From Nemertoderma westbladi (lineage: Eukaryota; Animalia; Xenacoelomorpha), in contig JAUCBJ010005728.1 of the NCBI GenBank assembly GCA_032718475.1, forward strand, positions 1-48,729: DNA of 48,729 nucleotides. The letters run 5' to 3'. Both the position numbers and the translations under genes were made by a program. The notes under the pieces were generated by a model. That model was not told the origin of the DNA. It did no database searches and was given only the letters and a program-made list of their open reading frames with translations. Positions 796 through 36,800 of the stretch are shown here, in pieces. How positions within the stretch are numbered: position 1 is the first letter of the stretch; each line of letters begins with the position of its first letter.

Positions 796-865
796 AGAAA
801 ATGGGATTTAAGTCTATAAAATATAAAAATCACAGTTTCTAAAATACAAAAAATACTCTATACTA

Positions 866-3064
866 CTAGTCCTTCTTACGTGAACGGCGTTTACAAAGTT
901 TTTTGAGGCTAGCAAGAGTCCTTTTCTCTTTGGGGCGAGCCACTTTACTAGGAGGGCTATAACTCCTGGGTGAGGGGTGCAATACAATTGCATCGGAAGG
1001 TTTCGGGTTACGGTCGGTGTATCCGCCGGTCGAGGTACCCGGTTGATCGATATCAACCTCAGTGGAACGAGGTCGAACAACATTTAGAGCGCGTTTCAAG
1101 ACAGCAGCTCTTACTGGTCCCTGACGGGTCGTTTGCACGAGAGTGGTAGGCGGACCGTGAGTAGTGAGAAATTGGTTTGATGGTTCTTTCCAATTCGCGT
1201 TCTCGGGCTCTATATTCATATGGTCGTCTATGAACTTCTTGTAGCTCTGGATGCGAGTTTATGAACAAGTCACCGCATGATTTATCAATGGTAGAAACTT
1301 TAAACTGTGTGTAGGATCTTCTGGTTTCACCATATAATATTGAGTTAAATTGACATAATAAGGGTGGTCTTTGATCTCATAAAATGAGTTCGGCAAAGGT
1401 CTAGCGCATAGGTTGACCTCGTGTACCATACGACGGACAAGATCCGCTCGATTGTCCGGAGGTTCAAAGAGTATACCGTCGACACGAGCAGCCTCGATTG
1501 GCGGACGTTGTAACATAGGAGCGTCAGCGATAAGATCTCTAGATCTTAAGTTGATATCAACCGGTTGGGGTTGTACCGTGGCGAAGAGTTTGTCTCCAAA
1601 ATGGGGAACCATTGAAGGATGAATAATGGTCTTGGAATAGAGATCAGTCATAAGGATTTGAGCTTCTGGCTGGGCTAAAGCTGCTTCTTCTCTCTCGTCT
1701 ATTTCGATGTGCTTCTCCTCGAGCTGATTTTCCTCCGCTTGTCATTGGAAGCGTTCGTCCAAAAACTCTTGCAGAGAGTAGGTTCGTCCGAGTTCGATAT
1801 CTTCTTCGAGGTTCTGGATTTCTCGATCGAACTGGGGTAAGTCTAATTCCTTTACCGCTTGGACTTGCTGCTGCAATTTACGTTTATCTAAACAATCGTA
1901 GGTTCCTTTTCCGAATTTTTGTCTAATAGCGTCTAACGCGTTTGGTAAAACGCTCTCCTCCACCTCGGTGACGGGTTGTATCGGGGTTAAACCGGGACGA
2001 TTATACGGGTTGAACGGCGATATTAGGTGTCCGCGTCCCAATCTGGCTAGGTAAGATGGGCGAATATCTAGGGAGCCCACAACTGGCGTGCCACCGACTA
2101 ATTGTTCGGGTAACACTAGATCTTTGAACAGTGAGTACAGTTCAGGAGGATCCGTTATACTATTAGGATCAAGAGTTTGAGGTCTCACCAGCGAATGAGG
2201 AGGTCTGACCGAGTATTTCGGAACTCTGATCATCGGTTAATTTAAGGATCGTTTGAGTCGAGCAAGCGTAGGTGATACGTCGAACAAGTTTTGCTCAAAA
2301 CTCCCATTAGTATAGCGAGTAAAACTGTGTTTAGAGCAACGTCTCCTCGGATGTTTATGTCTTTCCATTTGTTGGTTGGGTCTAGGGCATTCATCACAAT
2401 AATACCAAAGACGCATATCTTGTCGGGGAAACGCGGGTGATCTTTCTCCAGTTTTACAATATTCCTCCATCTGTTCGAAGCTATCCGGTACAACAGGTAG
2501 CGGTCGATCGGCGGTAAGATACATCATAGTGAAATAGAGTCGTTTGAGTTCTATCATAGGGTCATGATGTATACCTTGAGGATATCGAGTTTCTAGATTT
2601 TGTTGACTGGCTACATTGAGATATGTTTCTCTCAAGAATTCCAGATATTCGTTGAAATCACTGCGTTTATCCGGTTCTTCAACGTCTTCTCTTTCGAGTC
2701 GGTTTCGAATAGAATTTTCATGTTCGATTCTCAGTTTATCGTTCCGACTCCGCTGGGTATGATATTTAAATAGGACCATTTCCCTTTTGGTGTCTACATC
2801 GTCCGTATCGTGTAAATCGATAGGATGACCAGTAGTTAAGAAGACCATATACGTACCATTACGATGCGTATAGCGAGCGGTGAATTTTCTATAGTCCAAT
2901 TCACGCGTGAGCTGTTCCTTTGACATTGGCGGTTCGATATAACGGCCATCGTCCTACGTAGTGGGTTGACTAGCGTCGCAGCTTATTAAACTATCAACAA
3001 ACGCTTGCAATGGTAGGGTATATCGCTCCCTGATACCAAGATCATCTTCTATCAACTCAGTCAT
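866..3064 (-). pseudogene. Accessory ORF3 of element A (about 732 codons, putative Zn-binding protein) broken by four in-frame stops
   Basis: ORFs 2237-2926, 1742-2233, 1259-1651 and 866-1219 share one frame, with open linkers and an in-frame ATG at 3064. Stops at 2954-2956, 2237-2239, 1742-1744 and 1259-1261. Collinear similarity to the 40.3-41.6 kb region of element C. Confidence 0.8.
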
Positions 3065-3946
3065 AGCTACTATATGAGTTTATCGATATTATAATTAATT
3101 ATATTTAGGCTAGCTGTCGTAGCTGCCTCCACCTCAATGCCCCCGGACAGCGCAAGGTCCTCAGCGCTGATGTACTGTCGTCGCTGTGCCTCTCGCCAAC
3201 GTAGTAGCTACACAACGACAACAATAACCAGAGCGAGTCACTCCACTGTCCGTCCCAAGGGCTTAGAATTACTTCAGGTTCTTGCTGCAGAGGTAGGGCA
3301 ACTTTCACAACTGTGACTCGCTACTGTAAACACACTTTAGTATTAACATTCACTTATAAACGCACAAATTCCACACAACTGTCACAAATTGTACACATTC
3401 GGGCCATTTGTCCATTAGTCAAGTGCCTTCCAGAATGCCACGTTATTATTATGTATCCCTGGATACTGGCAGTGTGCTATTTGTTCCGTATGCTATTCAA
3501 TGGGGCAAGCTTTCTATTGTTCTTTTAGCTCGCTTCTAATTCTAGCGTGGTTGTTGCTATGGTGACATTATGGAAAGCTAGCAGTAGAATTAGGGTAATT
3601 CTCATGCATACATATCTGGGATGCTATTTAATAGTAATTCTTTAATTGTCAATATTCCCCTTTATACATGATTTTATGAATTTTATCGGCTATTGACTAT
3701 ACATTGGAGATTCTCGCACACTAATATACTTAATAGGGTAAATCTCCGCTCCCATGATCTATTAATTAATGGAATTTTGGGAATGTTATAAATTGTATAA
3801 AATGACAATTTATCAAATTCATGAGAGGATATGAATTTAAATTTATTCCCGTAAATTTTATTATTTGACACTAAAATAGACACAATTTTATTCCAGAGCA
3901 TGTCTGGGGCCTAGGATCCTTAATTCTAGGAAATTTGTCTTTTTAA

Positions 3947-4658
3947 GGGGGGGGTACACCATTTTGGTCAAAAATATGTCGAAATTTTTTTTATGATATA
4001 TTATAATGCACCATTGAATGGTGTTTCCAAATCTGAAAACCGCTATTTAATTGGTATTTTAGTTTTTAAGTTATAACAATTTCCATTTAGGGATTCCTAT
4101 TGAAATTACTATTACTATATATAATGAAAGGTCGATTATCTCAAAATATTTTTTTTATGAAATTGTCAACTTCAAAACCCTACTACTTCTACAATTTTTG
4201 AGCAATTAGTCTGAAACTTTCTGTGGGTGTCTACATAGCCACCCTGCATAAAAGTATCAGACAACTTTTCGAAATTATTTGTTAATAAAATTTAATACTA
4301 TTTATAACAAACCTAAAAATTAGGCATAAATTTGCAGCGCCACCTAGCGGTGCAGAATTATTTTCAGAAAATTTCGCCTGATAGTTATGTTGCCCCATCT
4401 TTGATCTATCATATAAAAAAACTTTCATGTGATTAGATTCAAAACTGAAAAAGCCTTAGGGTTTTAAGCGCAACCAAGTTTTTTTTGTTGTTAACTAGTA
4501 TTAACTAATATTAAATAGCGAAAAATAAAAATTTTCTAACCTGTCATGTAGAATAGCATCTTAGGCACTTATATTCCAAATTCTAGCCAAAACCAAACAA
4601 TTTTGAAACGCTGAGAGTTAAAAATCGAAGAGTTGTCCGAAAATGGTGTACCCCCCCC
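3947..4658. mobile_element. Non-autonomous DNA transposon (MITE), Kolobok-like
   Basis: TIR GGGGGGGGTACACCATTTT...AAAATGGTGTACCCCCCCC flanked by TTAA (3943-3946, 4659-4662), RR..YY ends. The rejoined flanks match an uninterrupted repeat copy at about 4863-4990. Partial second copy at about 47545-47870. Confidence 0.85.
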
Positions 4659-5238
4659 TTAAGAGTATCGGTAAGTGCTACGATATCTTAATCGACTAGA
4701 ATTTTAAAGGATCTGAATTTTAACAGATTTTTTATTTATAGATTTTCTTGGTTTACAAACTCCTTAGAGTTTATTTGTCTGCTTTTTTACTCTATTATAA
4801 CATTTGTTTTAATAGATTTTATAAATATTTATTAAATATTTAATATTTAAGATGGGCACCGATTTATTCCAGAACATGTCTGGGGACGTTAACCACTGAT
4901 TCTAGAATTTTGACTTTCAAGTATATCGGTGGGTGCCGCGATATCTTAATCGACTAGAAATACAGATGGTCAAAGGGTTTAACAGATTTATTTTGCGTAA
5001 GGAAAGAGAAAATGAATTGTTTCTCGCCATTAAACTAAATATATAATGTTAAGTAATTAAGTAATAAACACGAATATATATATTGCACTAATCTACTAAA
5101 TAATCGCTAAAATAATATTCTACTAAATAAAATTTAAGAAAACGATTATAATAAAATTACATAATAATACATACATAAGTATAAAAATAATAAAAAACAG
5201 ATATAAATAATGTAGTCACACACCCACTCCAGACGCTG

Positions 5239-6846
5239 TTACGTTGGGGAGTCCCTAGATGTTTGTTGGATTAGGGAGGTGGTCGTGGGAAGAGTATCTT
5301 GCCTTCCATAGTTTCCGGATAGCTCTCTGTCTCTTTCCAGTAAACATAAACGACCAACTGGGCGATTGAGTTGCTGTGTTTCGAATACAATTCCAGGTTT
5401 CTTAAAGTTACGTCGCATGACGACGAGTTCTACCGATCGCACTAAACCATCATCGGATATATGAGTCTTGATGATACGACCTGTCTGCCACCGCTTACGT
5501 GGAAGATCTGATTCCGCAATAAGGACCATGTCTCCGGCACTGACGTTTTCTTGCTGCGCAAACCACTTGGTTCGAAGTTGTAGCGTAGGCAGATAATGTT
5601 TTTCGAAATGGTCAGCGAAATGACGGGATAATAACTGCATAATTTGCCAAGTTTGTCGGCAGTATTCGTCTCCATCCGTGATTTCCGATTGCGGGAGCAT
5701 GGCTACAGGTTTCTTTAGTAGGAAATGCGCAGGTGTTAGCGCTTCTAGGGAGTCGGGACTCGATGAGACTGGCATAAGCGGTCTCTCGTTAAGATAGGCG
5801 GCAATTTCTTCCATTAACGTCCACAAAAGTTCGTCGGTGAGATACGCGCGGCAAGGCACTATAAAGTGAAATGCGGTCTTCATGCTCCTTATTAATCTAT
5901 CCCAACTTCCTCCCCACCAAGGGGCGTCGGCGGCGTTGAAGGTCCAGCTAGATGCTGTTACCCTTAGCTGATCGTCCACCTGTCTTTGGTTCCAATCTTT
6001 CACATAAGCTTTGATATCATTATTGGCGCCAATGAAGTTCGTTCCCTTGTCGGATCTCATCGTATTGCTAGTTCCAAAGCGAGCGATCTGTCGGCGTAAA
6101 CTCAGTATGAAGCTGTTCGTAGACAGATCGTTCACCATATCTAGATGGATCGCTCTACAAGTCATACAGACAAAGATGACACACCATCGCTTGAATATAG
6201 TCCTAGCACGATATACTTCAATAGGGCCAAATAAGTCCACACCAGTATTAGTAAAGTGTGGTTCATAGAAGCTTACTCGTTCCCTAGGTAATTCTGCCTC
6301 TCGCTGTGTTAAAGGCCTACTGAATGCTTTCCTACAGGGTATGCAGTTCCTAAGAACTTGGTTCAGAGCTCTACGGGGTTTATGGAAATAATAGCAAGTT
6401 CGAATTTCGCTAAGAACTCGTTCTCTACCAGCATGGTAAAGCCTACTGTGAACATCTACATTCATCTTGATTTGTATTTCAAGATTTCTAATGAGTATGG
6501 GAAACTTAGTGTCAAAGGATAATGGAGCATTAGTTAGTCTCCCTCCAACACGTATTAACCCATCTATCATTGTGCTAGAGAAACGATCCCTTAAGTGCAT
6601 CTGTGGATTTCTCAACAACAGGAAATACTTATCGGAAACTTCATAGCATTGCAGGAGTCTCAGTATCTGCTTATTGGTTTCTTCATGCTCTTGATAACTG
6701 ATCTTCTCCGTCAGAAACCTATCCGACACTTTGTAAGTGGGAAGATCTTTAATAGCATGGACCAGTTCGGTTATCATCTGAGCGGTATCATTAGCAATCT
6801 TCGTCCTGGAATAGTGATGATGGAAGCATCTTTTGATATACACCAC
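5239..6846 (-). pseudogene. pol: Integrase region of element A pol
   Basis: HHCC zinc domain (H..LYHAG...CIPC), GVDLFGP, SDKGTNF, PWWGGSWDRL (expected catalytic E appears as D), LTPAHFL, GLVRSV C-terminal domain. Confidence 0.93.
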
Positions 6847-6852
6847 GGCCTT

Positions 6853-9603
6853 TCAAAGCCGATTCCAGGAGCTATAATGATTTATCGCTCCTTGCAAGAC
6901 GTCTTGTGTTCCAGATTTCCAGTCTCTTTCTCTGATTTCTACAACAGATTTATGTGTGGTGGGGGTGTTTAGATCCACAGCGTCGTCTCCGGAGGTGTGT
7001 AGTACAGACAGATCTATCACGGGTTTAAATAACTTTGATTTACTTGTCCGGGTTTTAGGTTTGACTTTCTCCGCTCCCTTGGCTTGTCTAATCTCAGCCG
7101 TGGTGAGATGAGGAGGCCATTCATCCCCTTCTTTACTCAGGAAGTCGGGTCCACCTAACCAGTCTGGAGTATCTATCAATTCTTGCGGGGTTGCTCCTCT
7201 AGAGGTGATGTCGGCTGGATTAATCGTCCCAGGGCAATGTCTCCATTGATCTACATTAGAGCGACTAAGTATAATGGCTACTCTGTTGGTAACGAAGACT
7301 CTGAAATGACAGACTTCATTGGTTATATACTCCAAAACGAGTAAAGCATCAGTCCAATATACAGTTTTCTCCAGTGGATAGTCAATCTGTTCTGTTACAT
7401 TCATGGCTGTAGCGTATAGAGCCACCTTTAACTCCGCTCGAGGAACTCGTAGTTTGTTGTTTATCAAGGCCTTAGAGGTGACCAAGGCAACTTTGATTCC
7501 ATCCGGAGTTTCATACCTATTCCCATATCGCTGGCGTCTCCAAACACATGGAGTTGATAGGAATACGTGGGGAGAACGTGACCAAAATATGAACGGGAAA
7601 TCGTAAAGTTCTCGATGGATGGTAGAGAATCTTCCCATTTCATCCACTTCTTTAGTAGTTCTCCCTTAAGTGGATCATCCCACGATTGGTTTTCAAGCCA
7701 CATTTGTTGCACTAAGCTCCGAGCAACCAATATAACTGGACTAATGAATCCCAATGGATCGAAATAAGTGCTCAGGATACTTAGACAAATCCGTTTGGTT
7801 CTAACTGGATTATCTCGCTGTTTTAACTGGAAAAACAATATATCTCTCTCCGTGTCCCATTTTAAACCAAGTGTTTTGGTTTCCGGAAGATCGTCCTTGA
7901 TGAGGTCCAGATCTTTAACACCTCGGTCTTCTACCGGGATCGATTCCAGAAACTCACGGGAGTTACTAGTGAATTTGGTTAGTCGAAATCCACCGCGTTG
8001 CAAGCACTCCACCGTTCCCTTGGCAACATCAATGGCTTCTTCCACCGATGGGAGGGACTTTAAATTGTCGTCCATGTATATATCCCGTTTGATGTTGTCG
8101 ATAACCGCTTTAGGGAAGGCGTCTCGGTTGTCATCAGCAGTGGTACGCACTACTGAACAAGCGTTCGAGGGGCTCGAGATGATCCCGAAAGCCTGGATGG
8201 TCATCCAGTACTCCACCGGTTTTAGGTTGAGATCTCCTTCAGGCCACCACAGAAATCGTAGGCTGTCTCGATCCCTATCCAGCGCCTTGACTTGTAAGAA
8301 CATGCCTTCTATATCCGAAGCGAAAGCGATAGAATATTGCCATAATCTTAATAGTATTCCCAACAAGGATTGAAGTAAGTTGGGTCCCGGCAACAATTCG
8401 GAGTTCAGGGATTGACCCACGTAAAGGGCGGAGCCGTCGAACACTACCCGGACTTCGTTGGGTTTACCGTGTTTGGAAACGTAATGATGTGTTAGATAAT
8501 ACGTTCTCTCGGTTATGGGTGTTTCTTCCGGTACTCGCTCCGCGTATCCCTTGTCAATAAATTTCTTCAGCTGGGTTTATACATTTCCCTGGCTGAAACA
8601 TTGGTCGTAAGACGCCGATGTAGTTGTGCGATTCTCTTTTCCGCTAAAGGTCAGTTATTTATAAAGTTGGGTTCTCGCCGTCGGAACGGAAGACCAATCT
8701 CATAGTGACCTTCATCTTTCAGAAAACGGGTAGTCGTTTCCTGAATCTGCTTGGCTCTCTCTTCCTCGACGGACAAGGCCTTGTCGTAGGAATTAGGCTC
8801 TACGGCTTCTTGAGTAAAGAATCGTATGGCGTGTTCATCGCGAATTTTATTGTTGTATCAATCTATCACTTCGTTTAATTCGTCGTTATATGTGAATTGT
8901 CCACCCTGTTGATCGATAAGATGGCACAAGTTTACTTGGTTTATCCAAGTTTGGTTTTCGGTGAGGAGGTCGATTGTATTTTCCTCATCATATAATTGGG
9001 TGATATCGTCATTGTCTGAGGAGTATGGTGTTCCCTCAGTTGTGGTTTCTCCCTCACTGATTTCTTCTTCCCATTCACTCACCTGATGTATCCTGTCATT
9101 AGGGAGACTTTCCATTAGGGTTCTATGGGAAGGTCCAGTGAAGTACCATAACCCACTCTCGACCTTCCCGCGTACGTTTGTAATGGTTGCGGTCGAGCAG
9201 GCCGTTTTTCTAAGGTCTCAAGCGCTTCGTGTGCGTTTTGGCCAATTAATATCTGAACCCCTGGGTAATCGGTGTTGAATCTAGGGATATCATGTTGCTG
9301 GGTAAAATGGTCTTCATCCCAGTTGTAAGGCTCCACTTGGCTAGTAGCAAAGTTCTTTATCGCCACCATTTATACCGACCTTACGCTATGTTCTCCTAGT
9401 TCGTCCTGGGGAGTGGACAACGCACCCACATAGTAATCTGTAGCTACTGTGGATTTCCAAACCTGCATAATTCCTTAAAGGTTTAACTTAGTTCGGAACT
9501 TGGGTTGTCCAGCAAAGATGTCTTCGGCTAGTTCTTTGTCGATCAATGTACCTGTGCTGCCAGAGTCAAGGAGGGCGTTTACTATCCACTTGCGTCCTTC
9601 TGG
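6853..9603 (-). pseudogene. pol: Protease, RT and RNase H region of element A pol (frameshifted)
   Basis: VNALLDSGSTGTLID (about 9540-9585), SLNSELLPGPNL, SDIEGMFLQV, IYMDD, LGLKWD, FDPLGFISP, LHVFGDAS, PRAEL, YWTDA, NPADITSRG spread over several frames. Confidence 0.93.
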
Positions 9604-10906: not shown

Positions 10907-12407
10907 CCCGTGGACTCTCAGCTGCACTACGGGGAATTCCCGGATTCCGACGTTGGAAGTTCGAGCTTTCCAAGATGGTTGTCGGTCCAGAATAGTCAGT
11001 CGAGGCTCTTCATTTTCAGTTTCTGTCTCATATGTAAGTGCTCGATACACCGCGGTGTTTATCATATAACAGGATTCGTTTTAGTTGGAGAATTCGTCCG
11101 TGTAGAATCCTTCCATCTCAGAGCTGTGGTCAGTGTCGTTCACATCACTGAATTGGACATGTAGTTCGGGCTCACTTACCTGACTCGTGCGGGTTCTGTC
11201 AAATTCTGTGTGCAGCAAGATATGATGTTTCGCGCCGCACTTAGCACACCTAGCATCTGAGTAACAGGTCCGCCGTTGGTGTCCTCGTCTGAGGCAATTA
11301 TAACACAACCGCTTATCCCACATGACATCACGTCTATCCTTAAGGGATTTCTTCAAGAATTCATCACACCCACTCAAGCGATGTGGCCCGTCGCACAATG
11401 CACATTTGGGTTTGATATTACTTACTTTAACCTGTGTGGTGTTGTGCACACTTGTTCTTTCCTCGGGCTTTCTTCCATGAATTCTCTTAGGAGACGTGGG
11501 AGGAGTTGTTGATACCTGTTCTCTCCTGTCACTGGTTCGAGACTTAGATTTACTTACGTCTTTCCGAGTTTTGTTGACATAATAAGATCTTTCGGTGTCT
11601 TTCCCGCTGTTCTCCTCGTAGGAGGTTTGGCTTTCGCGGTCGTCTGTATAACACACTGGTGTTACCTTTCTCCTAGAAACGGGTTTTTCACTCACCTTAT
11701 TTTCCGGTATCTTCTCTCGAGACTGCTTTAGGAGCTGTAATCTTACCTCTCCATTTAAGAATGACATGAGATCAGCCATGGTAGGGTCTCTTTGTTGCTG
11801 GTCCGTCATATAGAGAACTCTTTTGTCCCAACGAGTACCTACTCCACCCTTTGGTAAATTAGATGCTACGGCTCCAACAACCATGGAACTCTGATATTCC
11901 TGAGACTTACCTAACCAATCTAGCTGTCTACAGATCTCCTGAATCTCATCGGAAAACTCTATAATCCCGCTGCTAAGAAACTTTCGGGGCGCTACTAATT
12001 TCCCATACAAGTACCTAGCTATGTTAGTCCTATTACCATACCTGATATTTAGTGTATCCCAAACTTGTCTTAATCCATCTGGATGTCCAATAAACTTTAA
12101 CGCCATTAACTTGGGAGGTCCTTCCAAGCACTCGATGAGGAATCTAAGTTTCTCTCCGTTAGATAGTACAGAGTTCTGTATGTTATCTTTATAATATTCA
12201 TTAAAAGGTAACCATTTCATCTCATCTCCATTGTACTTGACGACCTCTCCCACCTTTACCGCTTGACAGGCTTCGGTTCTAGCCATTTGACGTGTAAAAC
12301 TTTCTTGAGCCATCATATTATTTAATATAGAGTTATCGGTATATAAATTTCTCGGATTATGATCAGATCTGTATGGGATATCATTATCAACAGGTTTATA
12401 ATTACCC
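10907..12407 (-). pseudogene. gag: Gag core of element A (capsid-like domain, three Cys-His motifs) and gag-protease linker
   Basis: KYNGDEMKWLPF...EKLRFLIECLEGPP...LNIRYGN; CALCDGPHRLSGC, CYNCLRRGHQRRTC, CAKCGAKHHILLH. In-frame stop at 11081-11083. Confidence 0.92.
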
Positions 12408-12411
12408 TTAA

Positions 12412-13889
12412 CCCTATTAGTACCGGGCTATAAAATGTTGTACAAATACCGGGGGGGGGGTCATATTGACCCCCCCCCTCTAAAATCTACAAATATTTAC
12501 GAAAACGTCTGATTTTTTGTTTGTAAGTAGGTATCACTTGTCTGGATCCGACCGAAAAAAAAAATTTTCGAAAAAATGTACTGGGATGGTTAAATTGCAG
12601 CACCAAAATTACAAGTAGTGCACAATTTTCACCAAATTTGAAAGTTACATTTTCGGCTAATTATTTTTCAATACAGGTTTTCTGGGGTGCAAAATACATT
12701 GGAAAATATTAAAAAATGATATGATTACTATAAATGGCTGTTTAGTCCTCTCTGTGTAGGAAAAAAATGAAAAAAACAAGTAACCAGCACTTTTCAGTTA
12801 GAACACAAAATTTTTAATTCACTTATACGATGCTATAAATTCACATTTTCAGGTTTTCGAGGGCGCTGATTCTAATGGAATACATTTCTAATTTGCCAGA
12901 TCATTGCTACTTGTATTTTTCGGCGTAATTTGGCAAATTTTGGTGCTAGCACCAAATTTCGTACCCATCACCAAAAAGTACAAGTTTGCGATGTTCAGTG
13001 CTGTTTTTATTGATTCCATCGGATTCAGGACCCTCATAAACCCGTATAACGCAAGAAACAAGGTGATACTATCTACTTATCAATTTGCATATTTTCCAAA
13101 ATTTGGTGCTGGCACAACAATTTTCACCCACCGGCGAAAAATACAAGTTTGAGAACTCTTATGAAATTTTTACTGATTCCATTGAATTCAGAACCATCAC
13201 AAACCCGTATAACGCAAGAAACAAGGTGACACAATCAATTGATATATTTGATGGTTTTCAAAATTTGGTGCTAGCACCACATTTTGCACCCACATCCGAA
13301 AAATACAAGTTTGAGATGTCTAGTTCGATAATTATATTTTCCATTGAATTCAGAAAAGCCATAAACCTCTAAAACGCAAGAAATAAATTGTCACAAGCAA
13401 TTTTATCTATTGAATGGATTTTCAAAATTTCGTGCTAGCACCAAAATTTGCACACAGCACCGAAAAATACAAGTTTGATACGCTTGGTGCAACTGGTATA
13501 TATTTCATCGAATCCAGAACCCCAAAAAACCCCAATTGCGTAAAAAACAAGTTTCAAACAATCAATTTACAAAATTGACTTATTTCAAAATTGGTGCTGG
13601 CACCAAAATTTGGCACCCACCGAAAAAAACAAGTTTGAAATTTCTAAATCAATTTATATGAATTCCATCCAATTTCTAACACCAAAAAACGGTGCTATAA
13701 AAAATGGTGCTATAACTCGAAAAGTACCCAATATTTTTGAAAACGGTTTTCACTATTAGGAAGACAATAGATTTTTAGGAAAAGTCATAAAATTTCAGAT
13801 TCCCAACTATGTTTGTTTCAGAATTATAATAAAAAAACCACGGGGGGGGGGGGGGGGTCATATTGACCCCCCCCCCGGGTTTAATAGGG
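12412..13889. mobile_element. Non-autonomous piggyBac-like element
   Basis: TTAA TSD (12408-12411, 13890-13893), CCCTATTA...TAATAGGG termini, subterminal G(n)TCATATTGAC(n) palindromes at both ends. Excision fuses ...PIVNPI-KGNYKP...NNMMAQE in frame. Confidence 0.88.
12930..13680 (+). repeat. About 163 bp tandem array (about 5 units) inside the piggyBac-like element
   Basis: TGGTGCTAGCACCA-like palindrome recurs at 12941, 13104, 13266, 13430 and 13592, each followed by AAAATACAAGTTTG-like sequence. Confidence 0.85.
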
Positions 13890-13893
13890 TTAA

Positions 13894-16238
13894 TAGGGTT
13901 TACTATAGGGGTTTCTACTTCACTAGCAGTATAGATGCGTGTAGGCTCCACACCTTGTGCATGAAATACTTCAGACCTAACAGGTTGACACATTGTTACA
14001 GGGGGTGGTGGTATACCCATTTGTATATTTACTAATTTATCGCACTCTAAAGCGATACTCTGCTGCACTTCTTGCAACTCTAACCTACTCTCTCTTACTG
14101 TTCCCTTTAACTGCTGAACAGTCCCTTCCAACCCTCGGACCTGCTGGGAAGAACGTAGTTTATATTCCTCCAGCTGCCCGAGCAGGGTCCCCCGCCGTCC
14201 CTCGTCTACCCACTCAACCGCCGAAGCGGGAGCCGCCAACATAGTAGCGTGGTGACGCGTAGGGACGAAGGGCGACAAGTTATTTATGTCTTGCTCGGTG
14301 TCCAGGACCGGGAGTGATTCAGGGGCTATTCTACTGGGCACAGGTAGTTTAGTACTGTGCAAAGGGAATTTAGAGTTAGGTTCTAGAAGTACAGGGGTCT
14401 CTAAAACCGGTGTGGCTTCAATGACAGGCCTAATTATTTCGGGCTCATCTACTATAGTAGGGAGTCTTTCTACTCTAATAATTTGGTCTGTGGGCTCAGG
14501 ATTACTTAAATCTACACTAGCTAGTTGCCTTCTCACAGCCGGAGGCAAATTAGGCAACTTCTGCCGGTGTGGCACTCTTCTACGTCCGCTGGAACGAGAT
14601 TTATTTCCTCTACCTTCAGGATCTGTTGTATCGCCTTCATCAGAGGATATAAATCCCTGTCTCCTGGGTGTAGATCTACTTAGCAACTGCATCTGAGTAG
14701 CTGTCCTTTGTTTCTTCAAATAATCTTGTTTCGCATGAAGGTTCTCCAGCTCTAGTTGGGTAGTCGCTTCAGACGCTTTCAGTTCTGCTTCTGCCACTGC
14801 CGCCTTTCTTTCAGCCTCTGCAGCTAACGCCTTCCTCTCAGATTCTGCCGCTGCTGCTGCCTCTGCAGCTTTTCTTTCAGCCTCTGCAGCTGACACCTTC
14901 CTCTCAGCTTCTGCTGCTGCCGCTGCTGCTGCTGCTTTTCTTTCAGATTCCGCCGCTGCTGCTAACCTTCGGTCTTCAATTTGCTGTTTCTTTAATTGTC
15001 CTTCTTGATCCATTGCTATGAGGATGCTTTCATCAAATTTAGCCTGCTCCGCGGCTAATATTTCTGCATCTAATGAGTCCAACACAAATTTGGCTCCCTC
15101 ACTATTAGGATGAAGTCCAGCTAGCCGTCTCCTTAGCTCTTTGTCACCTATAAATCGTTGATAGTCCGACAGATAGATGTCAATAGCATCCTTCTTCTGA
15201 GGTTTTTCGGATGTAGTTTGAGAAAAGGTAGCGTCTGTTGATTCTCTGTGGGTCGCGCGCTCAGTTAGCTGAACTTTCCATTGCGTCGTTCCCTGGACTT
15301 TAAGACTCAAGTACCAGTTAAATAACTGGGAGCAAATCATGGGATAGGAGTAGCGCCCACCCCTACCCTCGGGTAGCAGTTATCGAAAGAGGAGCCTTCG
15401 GGTCGCCTCCGGCTTCGGCCGACTGTTTGCTCTTGCTTTTTGCTTGTAACGACGTGTCTTGGCTTCTCGTCGAGGCTTCCTCAAAGGCTGAAAGGATTAA
15501 CCTGATCCGTAAGGTTCGTTCTCGCACTTGATAAAGCAGCTCTCCCTGCTCTTGAGGTCCTTGACATTGTTGAAACAGGTGTTCCTCTAATCGCTCCAAA
15601 GAGCTGAAGAATCCCTGGACATATCCTGCTGCCGACCTCTTCCACACAGCTGGATCTCGAGTGTCCCTTACTACTCCCATCCTGTGTAAGTCCTCCCAGG
15701 CAGCTTCCGATAAGTTAAACGGGAGTCCAGGTCCGGGGAAGTTCCATTGCGTCTCTACAATAGACCTCAGTTCCTCCATCGTATATCCCGCATAACTGTC
15801 CCTGGTCGATCGCTTACTTCTCGCCCAATCGATTTGATGTTCTTCCACAGCGATCAATACTCTAGTGAGTACGGCTCCAGGGAGAATTAGAAGTGAATCC
15901 AGATAAACCGCTTCTGCCATCCTTGCTCCGATTTCGGGTGTCAACTCTACAGTGTCTGAACTACTGGAGTTATCGGGCTGTTGAGAAATAAGTTCTCGGT
16001 TCGGGTACTGCTGCTGTTTAACAGCTGCCTCTTGGTCCTGCTTGACTTGAGCCCTAGTGCCTATAATAGACCTATGGTGCTTTACTAGCCTAGGGTCTGA
16101 CACTACTACTGTAGGGATGACCTTTCTTACAGTAGGAGGGGACTTGGACTTCGGTCTCAGAATTTCTATACTCCTATCTGAATCACAGACTGTTCTTTCT
16201 AGGAGACTATCTGACAGTGTTTGCTTTGTGTCAGCCAT
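13894..16238 (-). pseudogene. gag: N-terminal Gag extension of element A (coiled-coil, Ala/Glu-rich), frameshifted near 15350
   Basis: ORFs 15363-16238 and 13775-15340; the latter joins the Gag core in frame after MITE removal; AAAAEAERK repeats. Confidence 0.75.
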
Positions 16239-16377
16239 GATTCATAATGCAGTTGAATGCCTACTACTATAATGACAGTTAAAGTAAGTCTAGTAATTCA
16301 GTATCAACTATAAGCCTAGTAATTAATTACCGATACCGTTACTCAGTGTAACGTGATATATATATATAATATATTAA

Positions 16378-27128: not shown

Positions 27129-27392
27129 CTGTATAAAATGGATAAATTCAAAATATATGGGCGTTTTATTTTCCTTATCTAAATATAATTGCACATCTTT
27201 ATGGCTTATCTAAATAATTATACTGTATGACGGCTAATATATTATACTGTATAACGGCTAATATATTATACTGTATAATATATTAGCCGTCATACAGTAT
27301 AATTATTTAGATAAGCCATAAAGACGCGCAATTATATTTAGATAAGGAAAATAAAACGCCCATATATTTTGAATTTATCCATTTTATACAGT
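27128..27392. repeat. Fold-back palindrome at the 5' end of element C
   Basis: 27128-27271 is the reverse complement of 27273-27392 plus one extra 24 bp unit; centre at 27272. Confidence 0.92.
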
Positions 27393-29263
27393 ATGTAGCC
27401 CTACGTACATAGTTTTGTAATAAAACATAAATAAATGGCTTTATGGTAGCAAGTTTCCTATAAAAACCTTGATGCAAGCTTGCTGTTATTGATTTCATTG
27501 TATTTGTCTTTTAAATTAGCTTTATATTAGATTGTGCTTAGTGTACTTTAAATATCGCGAAATTAATGTTAGGGCCAGCATCCAGGGACGCAATCCTAAC
27601 CATTCAGCAGCCAGGGACGTGATCCATTACCATATATGGTAATAAATTGCGATTTGGAAGCCCTGAGGTTCACAATTCGGCTTCCTTATTGGCCCAGCTG
27701 TTCCAGGTTGGTCTGATGGTGGGGCGGATTGGGGAACCAATGAGAGGAATATTGCGTCATCCCTGTTGCATCACCTATAAATTGGCTGTATTTCCGGTAT
27801 GTGCATCTTAATATCTCAATTGTTACAGCAGTACCAGTGGCAGTATTGTAGTTTTGTTTCTGGTTAATTGTTAATCTTTCGTCTATCTTTCTGTATTTCT
27901 CAATCAATTACTGCAAATTACAACTTTGAATTATGATTTCTACTTTGGATTATTAATTCCTACGTGATTTAAGATGTGATAATCCCACGGGATTTCTTTA
28001 GACTGTCAGACTGTTTATGATTGCATGCGCCGCTACAGTGGCTATTCATTCTATGTTCTAATGGAGGGCTAAGGTACCGGTAGGCGGGCGCACTGGGAGG
28101 AAGCGACGGAAGGGAGTGCAGAGGATCCAAAGCGGGGCGATGCTGGCGGGGGCCACCGTTGCGGTCGGAGCTAGTCAGTTGAGGACCGGGGACCAGCCGC
28201 TGTTACAGTATTAGGGGGCTGACGATCCAGATTTCCGTCCCTACTTTGTAGTTTTAGGGGGGCAGAATTTGGGTTTAGTTAGGAGTCCCATGTGTGGCTT
28301 TGGGTGACCTGTGGTTCTTACACTGACTGACTGATTGACTGATTGGATGACTAATACTGGTATACTGATGTACTAATGTATGGGTATTTAGTGCACTAGC
28401 TGATTGGTGTAGTTAGCGCTATCTGCCGTACTACTAACTTAGTGCTACGCTATTTGTGTTGTGTTGCTAAAGAGTGCCTGATTCTTAAATGTGAATGCTT
28501 AGATAGGCGCCTTTCCCTTTGATTGATTTCCATTTCTTAGTTTATGCTTATTAATTGCTAATTAGGTCAAAATAATACCGTATTTAGACTGTTGCTAGTA
28601 TAAGCCCCAGTACGTAAAAAATTAGAAGTACGTATTCTGGAATATCTAGTAATTAGTACGCGAATTTGTATTTATGACTGTAATTAATTTAGCGATAAAA
28701 TAAAATAAGAATTTGTACGCAGCATAGCGGAGAGCAGTTTAAGTAATTGTTTTAGAATACTGTAGACTATTCACGCTAGGCGGTTATTTGAAAATAGCGG
28801 GGCAACGGGCTGACAGCAGTGTCCAGTATACAGTACAGCAGTAGTAAGTTTGCTGATTTAAAACCAGCCAAAGGCCAAGTTTCAGCACCTAGGAAAGTAA
28901 CAGATCTATCCCCCTTAATATTAAAACATTCTCACAAATTGTTCTGCCAGTGAATTCCAGTATTTTGCGATAAGTGAACTCCGAGTGCTAGGTCACCCGC
29001 ACTCGTTTTAAGTAGTTTAGGGAACCGATTCGGGTTTATTGTTTTGGTTATTCCCGCGTGGCTCATAGATTCGAACAGTTAGCTCTCTGTTGAGCGATCA
29101 ACAGAGAAAGGAACAAGCGATTTGCAGGAGCCGTATAAAATTAGTAAAATATATTAGCGGACTGCCAGGTTAGCGCCATCCAGCAGTGAGAAGCAGTTTT
29201 GTGTTTAGCAGCAGTGCTGCAGTGCGGCAGTAATAACGCGCTCCTGATCACCCCTGTTTAACA
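27273..29263 (+). repeat. 5' LTR of element C (start replaced by an inversion)
   Basis: Direct repeat of about 42560-44548, identity ends at CCCCTGTTTAACA. Confidence 0.93.
27721..27781 (+). promoter_or_regulatory. Putative LTR promoter of element C
   Basis: GC box GGGGCGG (27721), CCAAT (27737), TATAAA (27776); conserved in the 3' LTR at about 43010-43070. Confidence 0.5.
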
Positions 29264-29273: not shown

Positions 29274-30186
29274 TTTTTTTACGTTTATTTTTTACTGTTG
29301 CTTTGCAACAGTGAGAAGTAACATTTGTTCACTAATCGCGAAATACAGCAATTCATTTGGGCCATTAGGGTAAATTGTAAATTAGTAAGTTTTTGAAAAT
29401 TTTAGCTAGGTTTGTGAGAATTCAGTTTCGACCAAAATTTATATAATAAAATCTAGAGTTTTTGTACTGGTATGTTGGATAACCGCTTAATTATTTTATA
29501 CCATCTGGAGATACATGGCGAGACGGTGCTTCTGAGTTTGGGGTTTGTGTGGGCCTGCGGGTTCGGTTTGCAATCAGCGAAAAGACTGAAACTTTGGACA
29601 CAGACGTGGAATCTCACAGCAAACAAGGTTAGTTGTTCTGTTGGCACTATAGTATTTGTGGAAGCAGTAAAAAATTACCGGTTATTTAACTGCGAAGCTG
29701 AACTCAATTTATTAGTTAGGTTAGTTAGGTTTAGCCAGCCATGGTGTTTTGGATTGCTCAGTTAGAGAGAGAGAGAGAGAGAGAGAGTCGCAACCCGAAG
29801 GTGTAGCCACGCGCTAGTGGATATAGAAATAATATTTAAAAATAAAATTACATTGATTTTGAGCTATATATATATAAAGTTAGAAATATTTGGGTGGCAA
29901 ATTCATTTTTGAATATTTTGAATTAGATTCAGAAATTATTTTTGCGTCATACCGGTATTTAAATGCTATATAATAGCTATATAATAATATTTTTGTTTAA
30001 ATATTATACCGGTATTTGCTATAACTATATATCATTAAATTCACAATATTATATTGCGAATTTATTTTGACATTTGAGACCAAATAATTTATTTGGTACA
30101 TAATTTAATTGTATTTTCGATTAAATTAATACATCTCGAATTTTGTGAGATTTTAGCCGGAAGGCAAATAATTATATACTTAGACA

Positions 30187-33100
30187 ATGAGTGTCTCAGA
30201 CAAGGAGGCACTAGAGGACAGCTATGAGACGGCGGCCGGACCGCCGACTGATAACAGTGTAGACATAACTGTCGATGACAATGCTGACTATGACGATGCA
30301 GCGAGTGACGCTGACGTAAGTGAACAGGAGGACGAGACAGTAACTAGTGAGGAAGAACAACAACCTCAGGTAATAGTATTAGGATCCCCTACCACTACTG
30401 TAAGGAAGGATTGTACAGCAGCCCGACCAGAGGTGAGTGATAAGGAGGGTAGAGTAGCAGAAGCGAGAGCCCGGAGCCCGGTTTCCAGACCTGTGGGTAT
30501 GGTAAGTGCCGTGGCCCCAGCGGCTATAAGGAGTACCCGTAGTTCCCGAAATAATCCTTCAAGTCCACCAAGTGTGAGTCAGGTAAGCGAACAGCAACTG
30601 GACATCGCGATAAAGAAGAAACTTCGCGCGCATGCCGGACATATAACTCGGACGACGGATAAGGTAAGGAAGATGCTAGCCGACTCTGGTAACATCGGAA
30701 TGGAAGGGTTAGTAGAGATTAGAAAGGGATATAACTCAGCATTATTCAAGCAGACGGAGGAGCTTGCAGTCCTACCAAAGAGAGCAGTGGAGTCCCAGTC
30801 GAGCGACGTGGCGACGAGGGTTTACGACAGGGTTTTAGCAGCCTTGTTGGAGCGTTATCGGAGCGATTTCGGCGAGTTAGGACGGAGAACTGGTTGCTAT
30901 TGGCATCACAAGCGCAGGCGACTCAGGTGAGTGACGCAGAGTCAAGATCCTTAGTGGAGCGGGAAGAGACGCAGGATAAAGAAGAGCGCCATTATCAATG
31001 GGAAGTTACCAGCTGGCTGATGCAGAGTGGTGTGGTGGTACCGGGCCAGGTGCTACCAACGACGGACAACATCCAACAGAGAACGTTAACTCCACCCGAC
31101 GACGCATCTAGAGACAGTGGCGATTCCCAGGTTAGTCACGTGCGAGGGAAGGTTATATGTGCTAGATCCCTTGTTTCTCACAACTCGGTGGAGGAGAGAA
31201 GATGCCGACTAGATGAACAGCAGGCAGAAGTTTTGCGTGCATCGGAAGCACGGAAGGAAGCCGAGCGGGAGCGGGAGCGCACACGTAAGTTAGACGCAAA
31301 GTTGCGAGAGTTGGAAGACAAAGGTAAGCGTGAGCAAGCCGAACGCGAACAGGAAGAACGAGAACTCCAACTCGAACGCGAACTCCAACTCGAACACGAA
31401 CGCGAAGAACGCAAACTCCAACTCGAATGTGAACGGGAAGCCAAGGAACGCGAACAAAGGAGACGCGAACTCCAACTCGAACGCGAGCGCAAGGAGTGCG
31501 AACTTGAGTGCGAGAAGGAGCGAAGGGCGTTGTATGAAGAGAAGGCGCGTGTGGAAGAAGAGAGCGCAGCGAGACGAGCGAGGGAAGAAGAAGAACGTAA
31601 ACTGGTGCAGTTGGAAAGTGCGAGAGTAAACTTAGAGAGCGAAGAACGGACCAGGAAGGCGAATGAAATTGCCGAGAAGGGGATGCGAATGATCGAAGAA
31701 TGTGGGGCGAGTGTAGGTACTGAGTTGCGAGAACTGTTCGCATTGCAGAAGGCCGAACAGGAAGCGAGAACTCCGACTACACGCGAGTCGACGACGACCA
31801 GAATTCCTATACCTGGTCCAGCTATTACGAGTACTCGGATCGCTAAACAGTTCTCTACATATCGCACATTAGTGCTTCACCCATCGCGCAGAATCCGCGT
31901 CACCAGGTCACCGCACCACTACATACCGAACGAGACGATGAGGAGTTTAGAGAAACTCCGACAGGGCGAGTATTTGGCGAACTGAACCCGCGGGTTTGGA
32001 ATACGTGGACGGAGCGCCGACCCAGTTTGACGGAGAACTTCCTGGTTAAACCGGAAGAGGGATCATATGAGAGACAGCGGATTACTCAGATAGAGACGAC
32101 TATACAACAGAACCCTAGCCAGGAATTTATTACGAGGGATGAGTTAAGTGCTAGTTTAGCGCAAGCTATATCGCCGCACATCCAACCTATAACGGACATG
32201 CTTAGTAACCTACGGTTAAAGGAAGCAGCCCAGGTAAGAAGTAATTCAAATCCTAGCAGGCCTGAGTTAGATAAAGTCCAACCTAGTCAACAAGTACGCA
32301 TATCGGAGGCAACTATACCACATAGACCTCAGGTAAGGACGCCTGTCCTGACTATCCATAATCCCGATTTCGAAAACTCGGCCGAGAAGTTTATACAAGA
32401 GGCTTGGGTCAGGGCTTCGGCACGCAAACCAACGCGAGCGCTGAGGACTGATACTGACTCAACCAATGAAGAGAAAGACATGAGACGTCAGAAGTCCCGA
32501 AACTATAAGGAAAGAAGGACCGACGCGGAGCAGGTAAGTTTTAATCCCCGGGAAAGGACCAGACTTAATAACCCTGCAGAACTAAACCATTTGTTAACCC
32601 GGAACGACGCAACCCTTAGAGACATAGGTAAGTTTGCTGCTAGGCAAGGACTGCTGACGCAACAACCCCAGAAGTTTATGGGCAACCACAAACATTGGAG
32701 GACGTTCAAAACCTATGTCGACGAACAACTGACCAACAGCACCTTTACTCCCAAGGAGAAGTTCAACTATTTGCTTCAAATGCTCCATCGAGAACCTAGA
32801 GCCATTGCTGACATCTTCGTCGGCAATGAAAGAGCATTTGAGTTGGCAATGAAGACGCTTAGCAACATTTACGGGAATAAAACCAAGATGGCACAGTCGA
32901 TAGTGGAAGACTTGGGGAAGGGCAGAAGGATTACAACTCCGTTAGAGCTGTTGAACTTAGCGAATGCTATTTCGAACGCATTGGATATCTTGATGACGGT
33001 GAATCTACCTCATCATGGTGATCACGCCGAAGTTTTGAAGAGCGTAATTAGACGTTTAAACATGCGTTACAGACAGAAATGGCGCAAATTAGAGAATAAG

Positions 33101-33620
33101 TTGGAGGGTCAAGGTAAGGTGTTGACACTTCAACATATTCATGACATGATAGCCACAGACGCAGTAGCAGAGATGAAATCAAATTTCTCAGAGGAGAATA
33201 TGAGAGAGTCTAAACCTGTTGTTACCGGTAAGTCTATGGTAAGTTTTGACGATGACAGGACCACTGTGACATTTAACTCAGTAGACAGATATAATTCGAG
33301 TACCCCAGCCTTTAGATCAGACTCGCGCGTATGGTCAGGTGAGCGGTTAGATAGACCTAGGTTGAAGCAACAGGAGGATTTGTAGGTTGCCAATTCTGCT
33401 TACTAAAGGAGGTAAGATCTGACGACCATAAGTTAGATAGTTGCAGACGGTTCAAAGAATTAACTTCGGAACAGAGAAGAGTTCAAGTGCGGACGTTGGA
33501 CACCTGTTGAGCATGTCTTGCGCCAGGTCATGTACGGCGGCAGTGCCCGAACAGCAAAGATAGATGCATGGAATGCGGCAGACTACATCACAAATTGCTA
33601 CATGCGGATTTCCATACTCC
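30187..33620 (+). pseudogene. gag: Gag of element C (acidic N-terminus, ERE-rich coiled coil, capsid-like domain, three Cys-His motifs), frameshifted
   Basis: ORFs 30187-30930, 30894-31985 and 32027-33385 (KFMGNHKHWRTF...EKFNYLLQML...IYGN); then CQFC..H..C, C*AC..GH..C and CMECGRLHHKLLH at about 33390-33603. Confidence 0.9.
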
Positions 33621-33839
33621 AACGGACCATTACTTACAGCGAAATCCTCAAAGGAAAGGGAGCAGAGAACCCGTATCAACAAGGAGAAATACGTACACCG
33701 GCATTCAAGACGATGGTTATCAACCAGGTTCGTCGGACGAGGATGGCGAGTTGAGCGTGAGAGAGGTGACCTGCCAAGGTTTCACCGCGGATAGTTCATC
33801 GACCAGCGCGCGGACATATTTATCATCGGCCACGTCGGA

Positions 33840-36800
33840 AATATTTAGCGTGATTCCGGTGAAACTTACTGGCGATAAGGGATCTAAGCGAATATATGTG
33901 ATGTTGGACACTACGTCCACATTATCTTATATCGACGAGGAAGTGGCCAGAGCCGTTTCTAGCTTCCAGGACGCAGAGGAAATCCAAATAGAGTTAAAGT
34001 CTATGCACGGGGTAGGAGACCTCAAGGGACACAGAATTTCGGTAGAACTAGACTCCCTACTTCCGAGATACCAGCACACTCGACAAGAACGGAGAGCTTT
34101 GCCATTAGATGGATTTAAGTGTCTAGCTATGAAGGGATTCGGCAGGCAGTTAGGTAAGGTGCCGCCGATGAGTCCCATAGCACAGGAGTATTTTGATAAA
34201 CTCAGAGTACCGAGACACTAGGTAGGTTATAGGAATGTTTCTATGTTGATTGGTGCAGAACAGCTGATCGCACACCAAATATGGGAAACGAGACCAGCTG
34301 AGCCGCATGTAAATGGACCATATGCCCATACGACTATATTAGGTTGGTATACACGAGTACCCATGTCTTATGAGTTTACAGGTGGCGACAAGCCAATGGA
34401 TAGATACGACGGATTAAAGCCTATAACTGAAACACCGTTAGTAGAACCACCAGACATAGACGAGTTTAGGAGAACCTGTATTGACCATTATAGTGACGTT
34501 AGCGAGTCGGACGAGGAGTTGATTCCCGATAATGTTAGATTGTCGGAACCACTTCACAATGACCGGACAGATAGCGAACCCGAGGACTACTGTTATCAGA
34601 CCCGTGGGTCTGGTTCAGCGGCCCACGCTACTTATCTGAGCAACGTTTTGACTTATACCGACATAGTGGAGGGTCAAGTGGCTAGATATCGAGACCTTGA
34701 CATTTTCCAATACAGTGAGGAGGAGCTACAGAAGGAATTGATACGCCAGGACCTCAAGACAGGAGCCAGAACCGTCAAATGGCTGGATAGGGACGCAATG
34801 GAACCCAGTGGATATGACCTAGCCATGTCTGCTGATGAGAAACGGTTGCTAGAGATGATGGAAGGCACCATACGTCTGCTACCGACTGGACATTTTGAAG
34901 TTGGAATGTTGTGGCGTCGACAACCTCCTAAGTTGGAGAACAACTACAACTTAGCCTTGAAAAGATTGAACGGAGTAAGCGCTCGGTTGTTGAAGAATCC
35001 AGACATTAGGGAGAAGTATTGCACCCAGATCAACAACTATTTCGATAAGGGATTTGCTGGGAAGGTAGAGGACCCTGACTTAGTGACAGACCAGACTTAT
35101 TACCTCCCACACCACTATGTGTCTCACCCTGACAAGCCTGACAAAGTCCGAGTAGTCAACGACTGCGCAGCAGTCTACAGAGGTATGTCCCTGAATTCAG
35201 AATTGATGGATGGTCCCAACCTGAACAATTATTTGATAGGAATACTGTTGCGTTTTAGACAGCGGCGATTCGCATTTACTTGTGACATCGAGGCGATGTT
35301 CCACCAGGTAAGAGCCTGTAAGGAAGACCAGGATAGCCTTCGATTTCTCTGGTTTGAGAATGAAGACTTATCCGGCCCAGTGGTTACATACCAAATGTAC
35401 GTTAGGATATTTGGCACCCGCGATAGTCCAAACGGCACGCTGTTTGTTCTAAAGAAAATGGCAACAGCCCAGATTGGTAAGTATCCAGTAGAGGTTATCG
35501 AGTCCATCTTGAGAAACTTCTACATGGACGACGGATTGGTGTCCAAGGACACAGCGGAACAAGCCATAGAAGTGCCTACAGAAGTACGGCCTACAGAAGT
35601 GCTTGGCTACAGGGGGTTTTCCTCTAACCAAGTTCACTACGAACTCGGAGGCCCTATTAGAGTCGTTCCTGGTAAAAGATCGCGGGAGCGGAGACATAGA
35701 ATTAGGGGTAGAACCCATCCCCATGGCGCGAGTACTGGGACTCGCTTGGAACCCGAACACGGACAAGTTCCAGGTAAGAGTTAGATTTGAGCCCAGTAGC
35801 CCAGACAAAGTTTTGACAAAGAGAATTTGCTTATCGACATTGAGTAGACTATTTGACCCGATGAACTTTATCAGTCCGGTAATATTACAGGCACGAGCGT
35901 GCATGAGGAAAATTTGGTTGTCCGACCTAGAGTGGGACGAACCAATATCTCCTATACATACAAAGCAGTGGAGAGAGTGGGAAGCCGAGTTGCATGTATT
36001 GAAAAATATAGATGTACCCCGCTCCTACTTTCCGAATCAGCTGGTATTTCCAGCTGATCTCGAACTGCACCTATTTAGTGACGCAAGTGACACCAGCTTT
36101 GGTATGGTAGCCTACCTTCGCCGAGAGGTAAGTCAAGACAAGTTTGAGACGGCTTTTGTGACTTCTAGATCAATGACAATGCCGGTCAAATACATGACTG
36201 TCCCTCGTGCAGAGTTGCAGGCGGCAGTAGTTTCAGTCGAGGTAAGTAAGCAGGTAACAGAGGAGTTAGACACATCATTGACCTTATTCTATTGGACGGA
36301 CGCATCCTTAGTGTTAGTATACATTGCAGCCAACGATATTGCACTAAAGACATTTGTGGCCAACAGACGCGCTCAGATCGTCGACTTTTCGACGAAGGAA
36401 CAATGGAGACATTGTCCGGGAGTGTTAAACCCAGCCGACATAACTTCGAGAGGTGCAATGCCGGCGGAATTCTGTCAGAAAGAGTCCCAGGAGTTTTGGT
36501 TGCATGGACCTGATTTTCTAACGAGGACACAGGAACATTGGCCAGAGCGACTGAAGATAGTGACCAATCCGATGCCAGAGGATGCAGAAGTCAAAGTGGA
36601 GAAAGTCTCTAAGTCAAAGTCGAAAGCCAAACTCAAGTCATTGGAGCGGCCTGAAGAGTCATTGGAGCGGCCTGAAGAGTTATTGGAACGGCCCGGAGAC
36701 CTGTCAGACCAACAGACTTACGTGACTACTAGGTCCGGAAGGGTAAGTTATGACATAAAACCACCCTTACAGACTAAACCAGAGTCACAATTGGTAAGTG

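Follow-up and report, generated by a model that had tools for sequence, protein, structure and literature searches.

The stretch of DNA analysed here, referred to as the window, comprises 48,729 nucleotides and contains on its minus strand the gag and pol genes of a retrotransposon, element A, with a long third open reading frame (ORF3) beyond them. The following features were assigned to element A.

11081..16241, minus strand: gag of element A, with DUF1759, a zinc knuckle and a long charged N-terminal extension (Pfam)
5239..8576, minus strand: pol of element A, broken, with integrase (H2C2, DUF5641) and RT/RNase H (Peptidase_A17 model) (Pfam)
3065..5238, minus strand: spacer between pol and ORF3, 2174 bp, about 1.46 kb minus an insertion
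3947..4658, no strand assigned: TTAA-flanked non-autonomous DNA element of 712 bp with 23-bp inverted ends, the site of which is empty in other copies
866..3064, minus strand: ORF3 of element A, 732 codons with four in-frame stops (frame analysis and shuffles)

Pfam analyses revealed the BEL/Pao gag domain DUF1759 in element A (E 1.1e-11) and in a second element of the window, element B (E 5.7e-10). Similarly, the pol model Peptidase_A17 was recognized in both (E 9e-23 for A, 1e-38 for B), and DUF5641 in A (E 5e-21). The integrase of element A is 35-42% identical to its closest database relatives, found across several groups of animals, and no LTR pair of element A was found within the window. 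Charged, repeat-rich N-terminal gag extensions are present in A (13775-16241, minus strand) and in B (30184-31985, plus strand); they show no similarity to each other, the one of A has no Pfam match and is interrupted by a four-copy array of 163 bp (12928-13674). Upstream of the gag of A, two overlapping ORFs of 280 and 353 amino acids (17667-19479, plus strand) gave no Pfam match above the cut-off and are possibly a frameshifted inserted DNA transposase.

On the minus strand, ORF3 runs from an ATG at 3064 to 866 and comprises 732 codons followed by a terminal TAG. The original prediction had joined separately listed ORFs into one 732-codon frame interrupted by TAG, TAA, TGA and TAA, and reading of the frame confirmed this order, with the stops located at codons 37 (2954-2956), 276 (2237-2239), 441 (1742-1744) and 602 (1259-1261). 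Each of the remaining five frames across 866-3064 contains 33-48 stops. When ORF3 was subjected to dinucleotide shuffling (n = 2000), an average of 38.0 ± 5.9 stops per frame was obtained versus 4 in the real frame, and four or fewer stops in any frame were seen in 0 of the 2000 shuffles, the lowest number being 19. Clearly, these shuffles rule out a chance open frame as the source of ORF3. Also, the GC contents at the three codon positions (0.56/0.39/0.41) are like those of the gag and pol of element A. Two details of the prediction had to be revised. The upstream piece, announced as 46 codons, has 36, since the first stop is codon 37, and the number 46 fits only if one counts to the next methionine (M48). 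The proposal that every stop derives from a single C>T change fails at codons 37 and 276, where the majority letter of other copies differs from the predicted one. Taken as a whole, ORF3 is very probably a formerly real, functional gene.

ORF3 lies downstream of pol, as had been claimed, but it is not adjacent to it, because 2174 bp lie between the two, 716 of which are an insertion specific to this copy. In all four sequencing runs compared (4/4), contigs jump over the DNA element with joints from 3941/3942 to 4659, so that 716 bp are missing from other copies and the ordinary spacer amounts to about 1.46 kb. The inserted element, perhaps Kolobok- or piggyBac-like, has a second related copy (85%) at 47522-47869. 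An AT-rich tract in the spacer ends with AG a few bases ahead of the ATG of ORF3, and this AG is a possible splice acceptor.

The ORF3 stretch, whole or in part, was found in 5 of 7 listed sequencing runs (4 studies), and in runs X1 and X3 the copy depth was very high. None of the listed runs with this stretch is recorded as RNA, and run X5 was dropped as evidence for expression, as its RNA nature was only guessed and non-coding parts were covered too. For the comparison of other copies, contigs of four runs were aligned with window positions 1-4700, which ends 540 bp short of pol, so that the linkage between pol and ORF3 in other copies is not visible in these reads. The numbers of contig pieces per run on 1-4700 were 30,790, 10,605, 478 and 133, most of them with less than 99% identity, which points to a repeat family of large size and high diversity. 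Both stop codon 37 and stop codon 276 have a different letter in 96-100% of the depth in 4/4 runs, and these stops are therefore private to this copy or to a small subfamily. At codon 441, two contigs of run X4 carry another letter at 1744, whereas no variant at codon 602 occurs among the best-supported 40 of 1180 substitutions. Thus, two of the stops are missing from nearly all of the other-copy depth and a third from two contigs, rather than the stops being present in all copies. The idea that this region consists of separate small ORFs instead of one frame was rejected, as other copies lack stops 37 and 276.

The best-supported 40 of 1180 substitutions, a non-random choice, include 26 inside ORF3, or 24 when the two stop positions are excluded. 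Of these 24 differences, 13 are synonymous versus 27% expected (p = 0.004), a lean towards synonymous change and not the neutral pattern. Within the same best-supported set, synonymous changes account for 8 of the 12 variable sites (p = 0.005) and for 5 of the 12 near-fixed differences, the other 7 of which are non-synonymous; the synonymous share is not different between variable and near-fixed sites (p = 0.41). None of the 12 best-supported of 103 indels falls into ORF3, which makes up 47% of the stretch (p = 5e-4). Among 32 of 42,206 pieces, chosen non-randomly as the longest or best-supported and with those outside ORF3 coming mostly from the inserted DNA element, 18 of 24 ORF3 pieces versus 0 of 8 outside were gap-free at about 16% divergence (p = 3e-4), with 2.9 gap letters per kb in ORF3 versus 36.5 outside. 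ORF3 was formerly under selection, with a divergence that preserves the frame. On the other hand, out-of-frame deletion derivatives with a joint from 1213 to 1704 inside ORF3 occur in runs X1 and X3, and this recurrent joint suggests a deleted subfamily.

Four parts of the ORF3 protein were distinguished.

2327..2407, minus strand: W-Y-Y-C-x2-C-x11-H-P-x3-C-x2-H motif, a putative zinc site, also in element B
2165..2557, minus strand: conserved core (aa 170-300), common to elements A and B (sequence comparison)
1715..1885, minus strand: acidic helical middle (aa 394-450), a coiled-coil-like candidate (net charge; block pLDDT 50-55)
869..907, minus strand: basic C-terminus (aa 720-732), an NLS-like candidate that was undetected in B (charge)

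The predicted WYYCDEC-x11-HP-RRR-CSKH motif was found at 2327-2407 with the residues W220-Y-Y-C223-D-E-C226-x11-H238-P-RRR-C243-S-K-H246, and element B provides independent support for it, CxxC, HP and CxxH being present in both of the two sequences compared. The charged middle and the basic C-terminus also sit where they had been placed, with net charges of -11 for aa 401-450 and +11 for aa 701-732. The AlphaFold single-sequence models of ORF3 are of low confidence (pLDDT 35.0 and 37.4), and the acidic helices are the only region in which a block pLDDT of 50-55 was reached. No named zinc-finger family was matched in Pfam by ORF3 at E ≤ 0.5 or by the pieces of element B at E ≤ 0.001. As judged from its sequence, ORF3 is likely to encode a soluble, zinc-binding protein.

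The claim that signal peptide and transmembrane segment are lacking agrees with the hydropathy scan, in which the best 19-residue Kyte-Doolittle mean was only 1.06 and the GRAVY value -0.77. The mean hydropathy of aa 1-50 is -0.5, and the protein ends with a basic C-terminus instead of an anchor. The hallmarks of Env include, according to the treatment in PMC5408684, a transmembrane anchor, a fusion peptide and a traceable viral origin. Searches in Pfam, PDB and protein representatives gave no traceable homology to a viral glycoprotein. A canonical Env, i.e. a class I, II or III fusogen as in roo, Tas and Atlas, could be suspected from the place of ORF3 after pol and from one RxKR (aa 269) and three N-x-S/T sites; however, the hydrophobic N-terminus, fusion peptide and transmembrane anchor are lacking, neither Pfam, PDB nor viral structures gave a match, the fold search having been done with a low-confidence model, and we regard such a fusogen as highly improbable. 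Lacking a transmembrane segment, ORF3 is very probably not an Env. The same position of an env gene might be occupied by a non-fusogenic particle component or nucleic-acid chaperone that replaces Env in cell-to-cell spread, and LTR elements that spread between cells without Env have been described (bioRxiv 10.1101/2025.03.14.642691, in the part that deals with such elements). However, the absence of any transmembrane or signal-like segment (best 19-mer 1.06), the content of only 9 cysteines and the basic NLS-like tail make such a structural role distinctly improbable.

Element B, on the plus strand, was resolved into the following parts.

27240..29263, plus strand: 5' LTR of element B, with an inverted duplication (27128-27254) in place of its left end
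30184..39787, plus strand: gag-pol of element B (BEL/Pao), interrupted by a LINE fragment at 38361-39629 (Pfam)
40465..41469, plus strand: decayed ORF3 homologue of element B, with stops and a frameshift between HP and the CxxH knuckle
42493..44548, plus strand: 3' LTR of element B, which from 42529 onwards matches 27240-29263 with 97% identity

The sole significant tblastn match of ORF3 elsewhere in the window was 40489-40859 (E 6e-5), sense-oriented relative to element B and situated between the end of its pol (39787) and its 3' LTR. In a frameshift-aware comparison, ORF3 of A scored 146 against B, while 60 shuffled proteins scored 46 ± 6 (maximum 67) and other blocks of the window 35-59. 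The similarity between A and B is confined to aa 150-310 of ORF3 (134 versus 38 ± 4), and the homology reaches at most about aa 382. The remaining four segments score like shuffles against B, so that the NLS-like tail and the acidic helical middle are not conserved in B. Retained in B are MYL-x2-D-x-PLP-x-V-x-D-x-F, Y-x-C-x-E-C, HP and C-x2-H-x-F; the loop between the knuckles has 16 residues in A and about 22 in B, where the frameshift precedes the last knuckle. The reverse transcriptases of A and B share 44-48% identity and form a pair (94/95) in a 54-row tree in which both form long branches and both are included. By these similarities and by its place, element B carries an ORF3 homologue at the equivalent position in a deeply diverged element. 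A sequence of about 30 nt occurs twice near the end of this homologue (about 41160-41195 and 41645-41680), and the LINE reverse-transcriptase fragment (RVT_1, DUF6451; 38361-39629, minus strand) sits in the integrase of B.

Element B is flanked by an LTR pair with 97% identity over 2.0 kb, the left end of the 3' LTR being deduced from TGTTA...TAACA. At the start of the 5' LTR an inverted duplication (27128-27392) has arms of 127 nt with 98% identity, and no clear target-site duplication is present. Directly after this LTR (29264-29275) we find a splice-donor-like GTAAG and no TGG primer-binding site. Instead of being internal, ORF3 could be part of U3 if the LTR were very long and started right after pol, a placement compatible with the functional readings discussed below. 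Just past the pol stop of A (5219-5230), TGT comes after a purine run, the pol stop of B is directly followed by TGTT, the lost left end of the 5' LTR of B hides its true length, and for A the window offers no LTR pair. However, in B a purine run with TGTTA at 42493, which forms a 5-bp inverted pair with TAACA, lies 36 bp left of the aligned start of the LTR, and neither A nor B has an ORF3-like sequence upstream of gag, which renders the long LTR unlikely. The purine run with TGTTA at 42493 favours an internal position of ORF3 in B. That ORF3 might be an upstream ORF of the next copy in tandem was rejected, as nothing similar precedes gag and an LTR follows the homologue of B.

The search for relatives of ORF3 was extended to large collections. 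In a word-index protein search with X-read ORF3 (length range 402-1281 aa), 0 of 7995 scored candidates reached E ≤ 0.01, and in a search with an A+B profile (47-417 aa) 0 of 257 reached E ≤ 1. With phmmer, there was no match at E ≤ 0.001 among 1.84 billion protein representatives. PDB sequences gave a best E of 1.5 in one ORF3 search and no match in another, Pfam a best E of 0.038, which is below the cut-off, and PHROGs a best E of 0.089. Language-model features of ORF3 compared with the ESM Atlas reached 0.83 and 0.85 at best, which is chance level, and Foldseek with the low-confidence model yielded nothing at E ≤ 0.001 among viral structures. The motif pattern gave 54, 1 and 36 matches in metagenome, viral and prokaryote contigs, none of which was confirmed. 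The searched collections are mostly microbial and perhaps without the repeats of this animal, and these blanks are therefore not proof of absence. A match to a known Env or host gene, which the original prediction had named as speaking against it, did not appear in the sequence searches. Nevertheless, ORF3 might have been taken over from a host or a virus, in the manner of the DEDDy and GDSL ORF3s of rotifer LTR elements, and its enzymatic or regulatory fold might since have changed too much to be recognised. Such capture is documented for LTR elements in the account given in PMC5408684, and only single- or two-sequence profiles were available as queries. However, the failure to match any of 1.84 billion representatives at E ≤ 0.001, Pfam, PDB or anything in the A+B profile search makes capture quite unlikely, and rotifer-type enzymes should be detectable, while no nuclease or esterase domain of the DEDDy or GDSL type was seen in ORF3 in the Pfam, PDB and protein-representative searches.

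Among 80 other BEL/Pao integrase loci, ORF3 had no tblastn match at E ≤ 1 (0/80), and the best HMM match had an E of 3.1. The motif pattern was absent downstream of the integrase in all 71 control loci with a locatable integrase end (0/71), of which 22, 14 and 9 offered at least 1, 2 and 3 kb of downstream sequence, respectively; with only 14 of 71 extending over at least 2 kb, this is a modest control. In eight control loci pol is followed by a new gag (DUF1759) within about 0.6-2.0 kb, the ordinary layout without a third ORF. Two sister BEL/Pao loci contain Arg-rich ORFs of 249 and 180 aa (L035:4298-5044 and L059:2474-3013) between the end of pol and the next gag; they have no Pfam match and are possible small accessory ORFs. 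In three further loci, uninterrupted host-like ORFs are located 1-2 kb past the integrase (L020:5221-6351, L074:5704-6495, L076:13470-15107), resembling an aspartoacylase, an alpha/beta hydrolase and a multi-pass membrane protein, respectively, and may be either cargo or neighbours.

ORF3 is best read as an orphan, lineage-specific accessory gene of a high-copy BEL/Pao lineage. The predicted soluble, possibly nuclear accessory protein is supported in part, namely as a once-intact, element-borne, soluble protein that is not Env and has a conserved motif. As for its function, the most attractive proposal, to which we assign a probability of about 0.45, is by analogy a nuclear zinc-binding regulator of the element's own RNA. 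The template for translating ORF3 would be a subgenomic RNA, produced by splicing or from an internal promoter, as suggested by its location 1.46 kb past the pol stop and behind an AT-rich tract ending in AG. C223/C226 and C243/H246 would form a two-knuckle site holding one zinc, considering that the loop varies (16 versus about 22 residues) while the knuckles and HP stay; this site is presumably of the treble-clef or ribbon type. The basic tail may carry the protein into the nucleus, the acidic helices may multimerise it, and the protein would then bind the genomic RNA or the LTR of the element and promote export or transcription, in a mode like that of CERV from Cer1 or of retroviral Rev/Tat, without being related to them.

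Plant VANC proteins are sequence-specific anti-silencers of transposons and provide a precedent for a different role, in which ORF3 would block host silencing (by piRNA or chromatin) of its element instead of handling RNA directly. Runs X1 and X3, in which the copy depth is very high, are in agreement with such counter-defence, and so is the nature of ORF3 as a fast-diverging orphan of which A and B have only a small core in common. However, no similarity to known suppressors was found in the searches, and the spacer of A contains just short dispersed repeats and no target-like tandem array, so that we consider counter-defence rather unlikely.

The regulator of the element's own RNA finds its closest described parallel in CERV of the C. 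elegans element Cer1, a nuclear protein of 517 aa which combines a leucine zipper with candidates for a C4 zinc finger and an NLS and which according to the relevant part of PMC10309623 is needed for the export of Cer1 genomic RNA. Like ORF3, CERV is an element-encoded accessory protein with a candidate zinc-binding Cys cluster, a putative basic NLS and a putative helical multimerising part (PMC10309623, same part). However, CERV is described there as made from a spliced mRNA, with an N-terminal part in common with GAG and a C4 finger, whereas ORF3 follows pol and has CxxC...CxxH. The database searches with ORF3 returned neither CERV nor Rev; the resemblance is an analogy only and not membership.

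Within BEL/Pao (Belpaoviridae, Semotivirus), roo, Tas and Atlas virus share with element A a gag-pol with DUF1759, Peptidase_A17 and DUF5641 and extra coding sequence past the integrase. Ogre and Grande, plant elements of the gypsy superfamily, also have extra ORFs, to which ORF3 showed no sequence relation. The env of roo is errantivirus-like and within a single ORF, as stated in PMC5408687, and those of Tas and Atlas are gB-like and phlebovirus-like, respectively, as presented in 10.1101/2021.11.23.469668. Unlike these fusogens, ORF3 of element A is separate, lies 1.46 kb downstream, has no transmembrane segment and matches no fusogen. Section 8 of PMC2774666 treats the BEL/Pao clades, calls some of their members retroviruses and describes no other extra gene. 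The ORF3s of bdelloid rotifers (DEDDy, GDSL, coiled-coil, TM), as covered in PMC5408684, are sense-strand, located after pol, non-Env and family-specific like ORF3, but most of them are recognisable enzymes or have transmembrane segments, whereas ORF3 of element A has no recognisable domain. The extra ORFs of Ogre and Grande are, like ORF3, of unknown function in the account of PMC6431247, and a study cited in PMC8220671 reports for Grande a nuclear protein encoded by an accessory gene within its long 3' internal region.

Extra ORFs of unknown function after pol are thus already known for LTR elements generally from the pertinent parts of PMC6431247, PMC5408684 and PMC8220671, and the extra coding described so far for BEL/Pao in the corresponding parts of PMC5408687 and 10.1101/2021.11.23.469668 is envelope-like. 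A non-Env orphan Cys/His ORF3 in BEL/Pao was not described in the literature searched, the scope of which excluded subscription journals, Repbase and supplements; passages of PMC8556966 and PMC6338049 yielded no pertinent information either. A soluble orphan ORF3 in two deeply diverged elements indicates that BEL/Pao can carry accessory genes too, and the core of ORF3 would be a small new Cys/His domain without known relative. It is possible, if doubtful, that we are dealing with an undescribed 'complex' BEL/Pao lineage that has had a non-Env gene since before the split of A and B (<50% RT identity), with a new zinc fold and nuclear control of RNA. If true, a solution like that of Rev or CERV would have arisen independently in Belpaoviridae and would drive the very high copy number. 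With ORF3, one can test whether regulators of the Rev/Tat or anti-silencing kind are invented over and over by retrotransposons.

A third LTR pair of the window (95%; 22138-22745 and 45853-46457) encloses a gag-only element C (DUF1759), in which neither pol nor ORF3 was detected. Element C is likely to be non-autonomous, and element B is nested in its gag.
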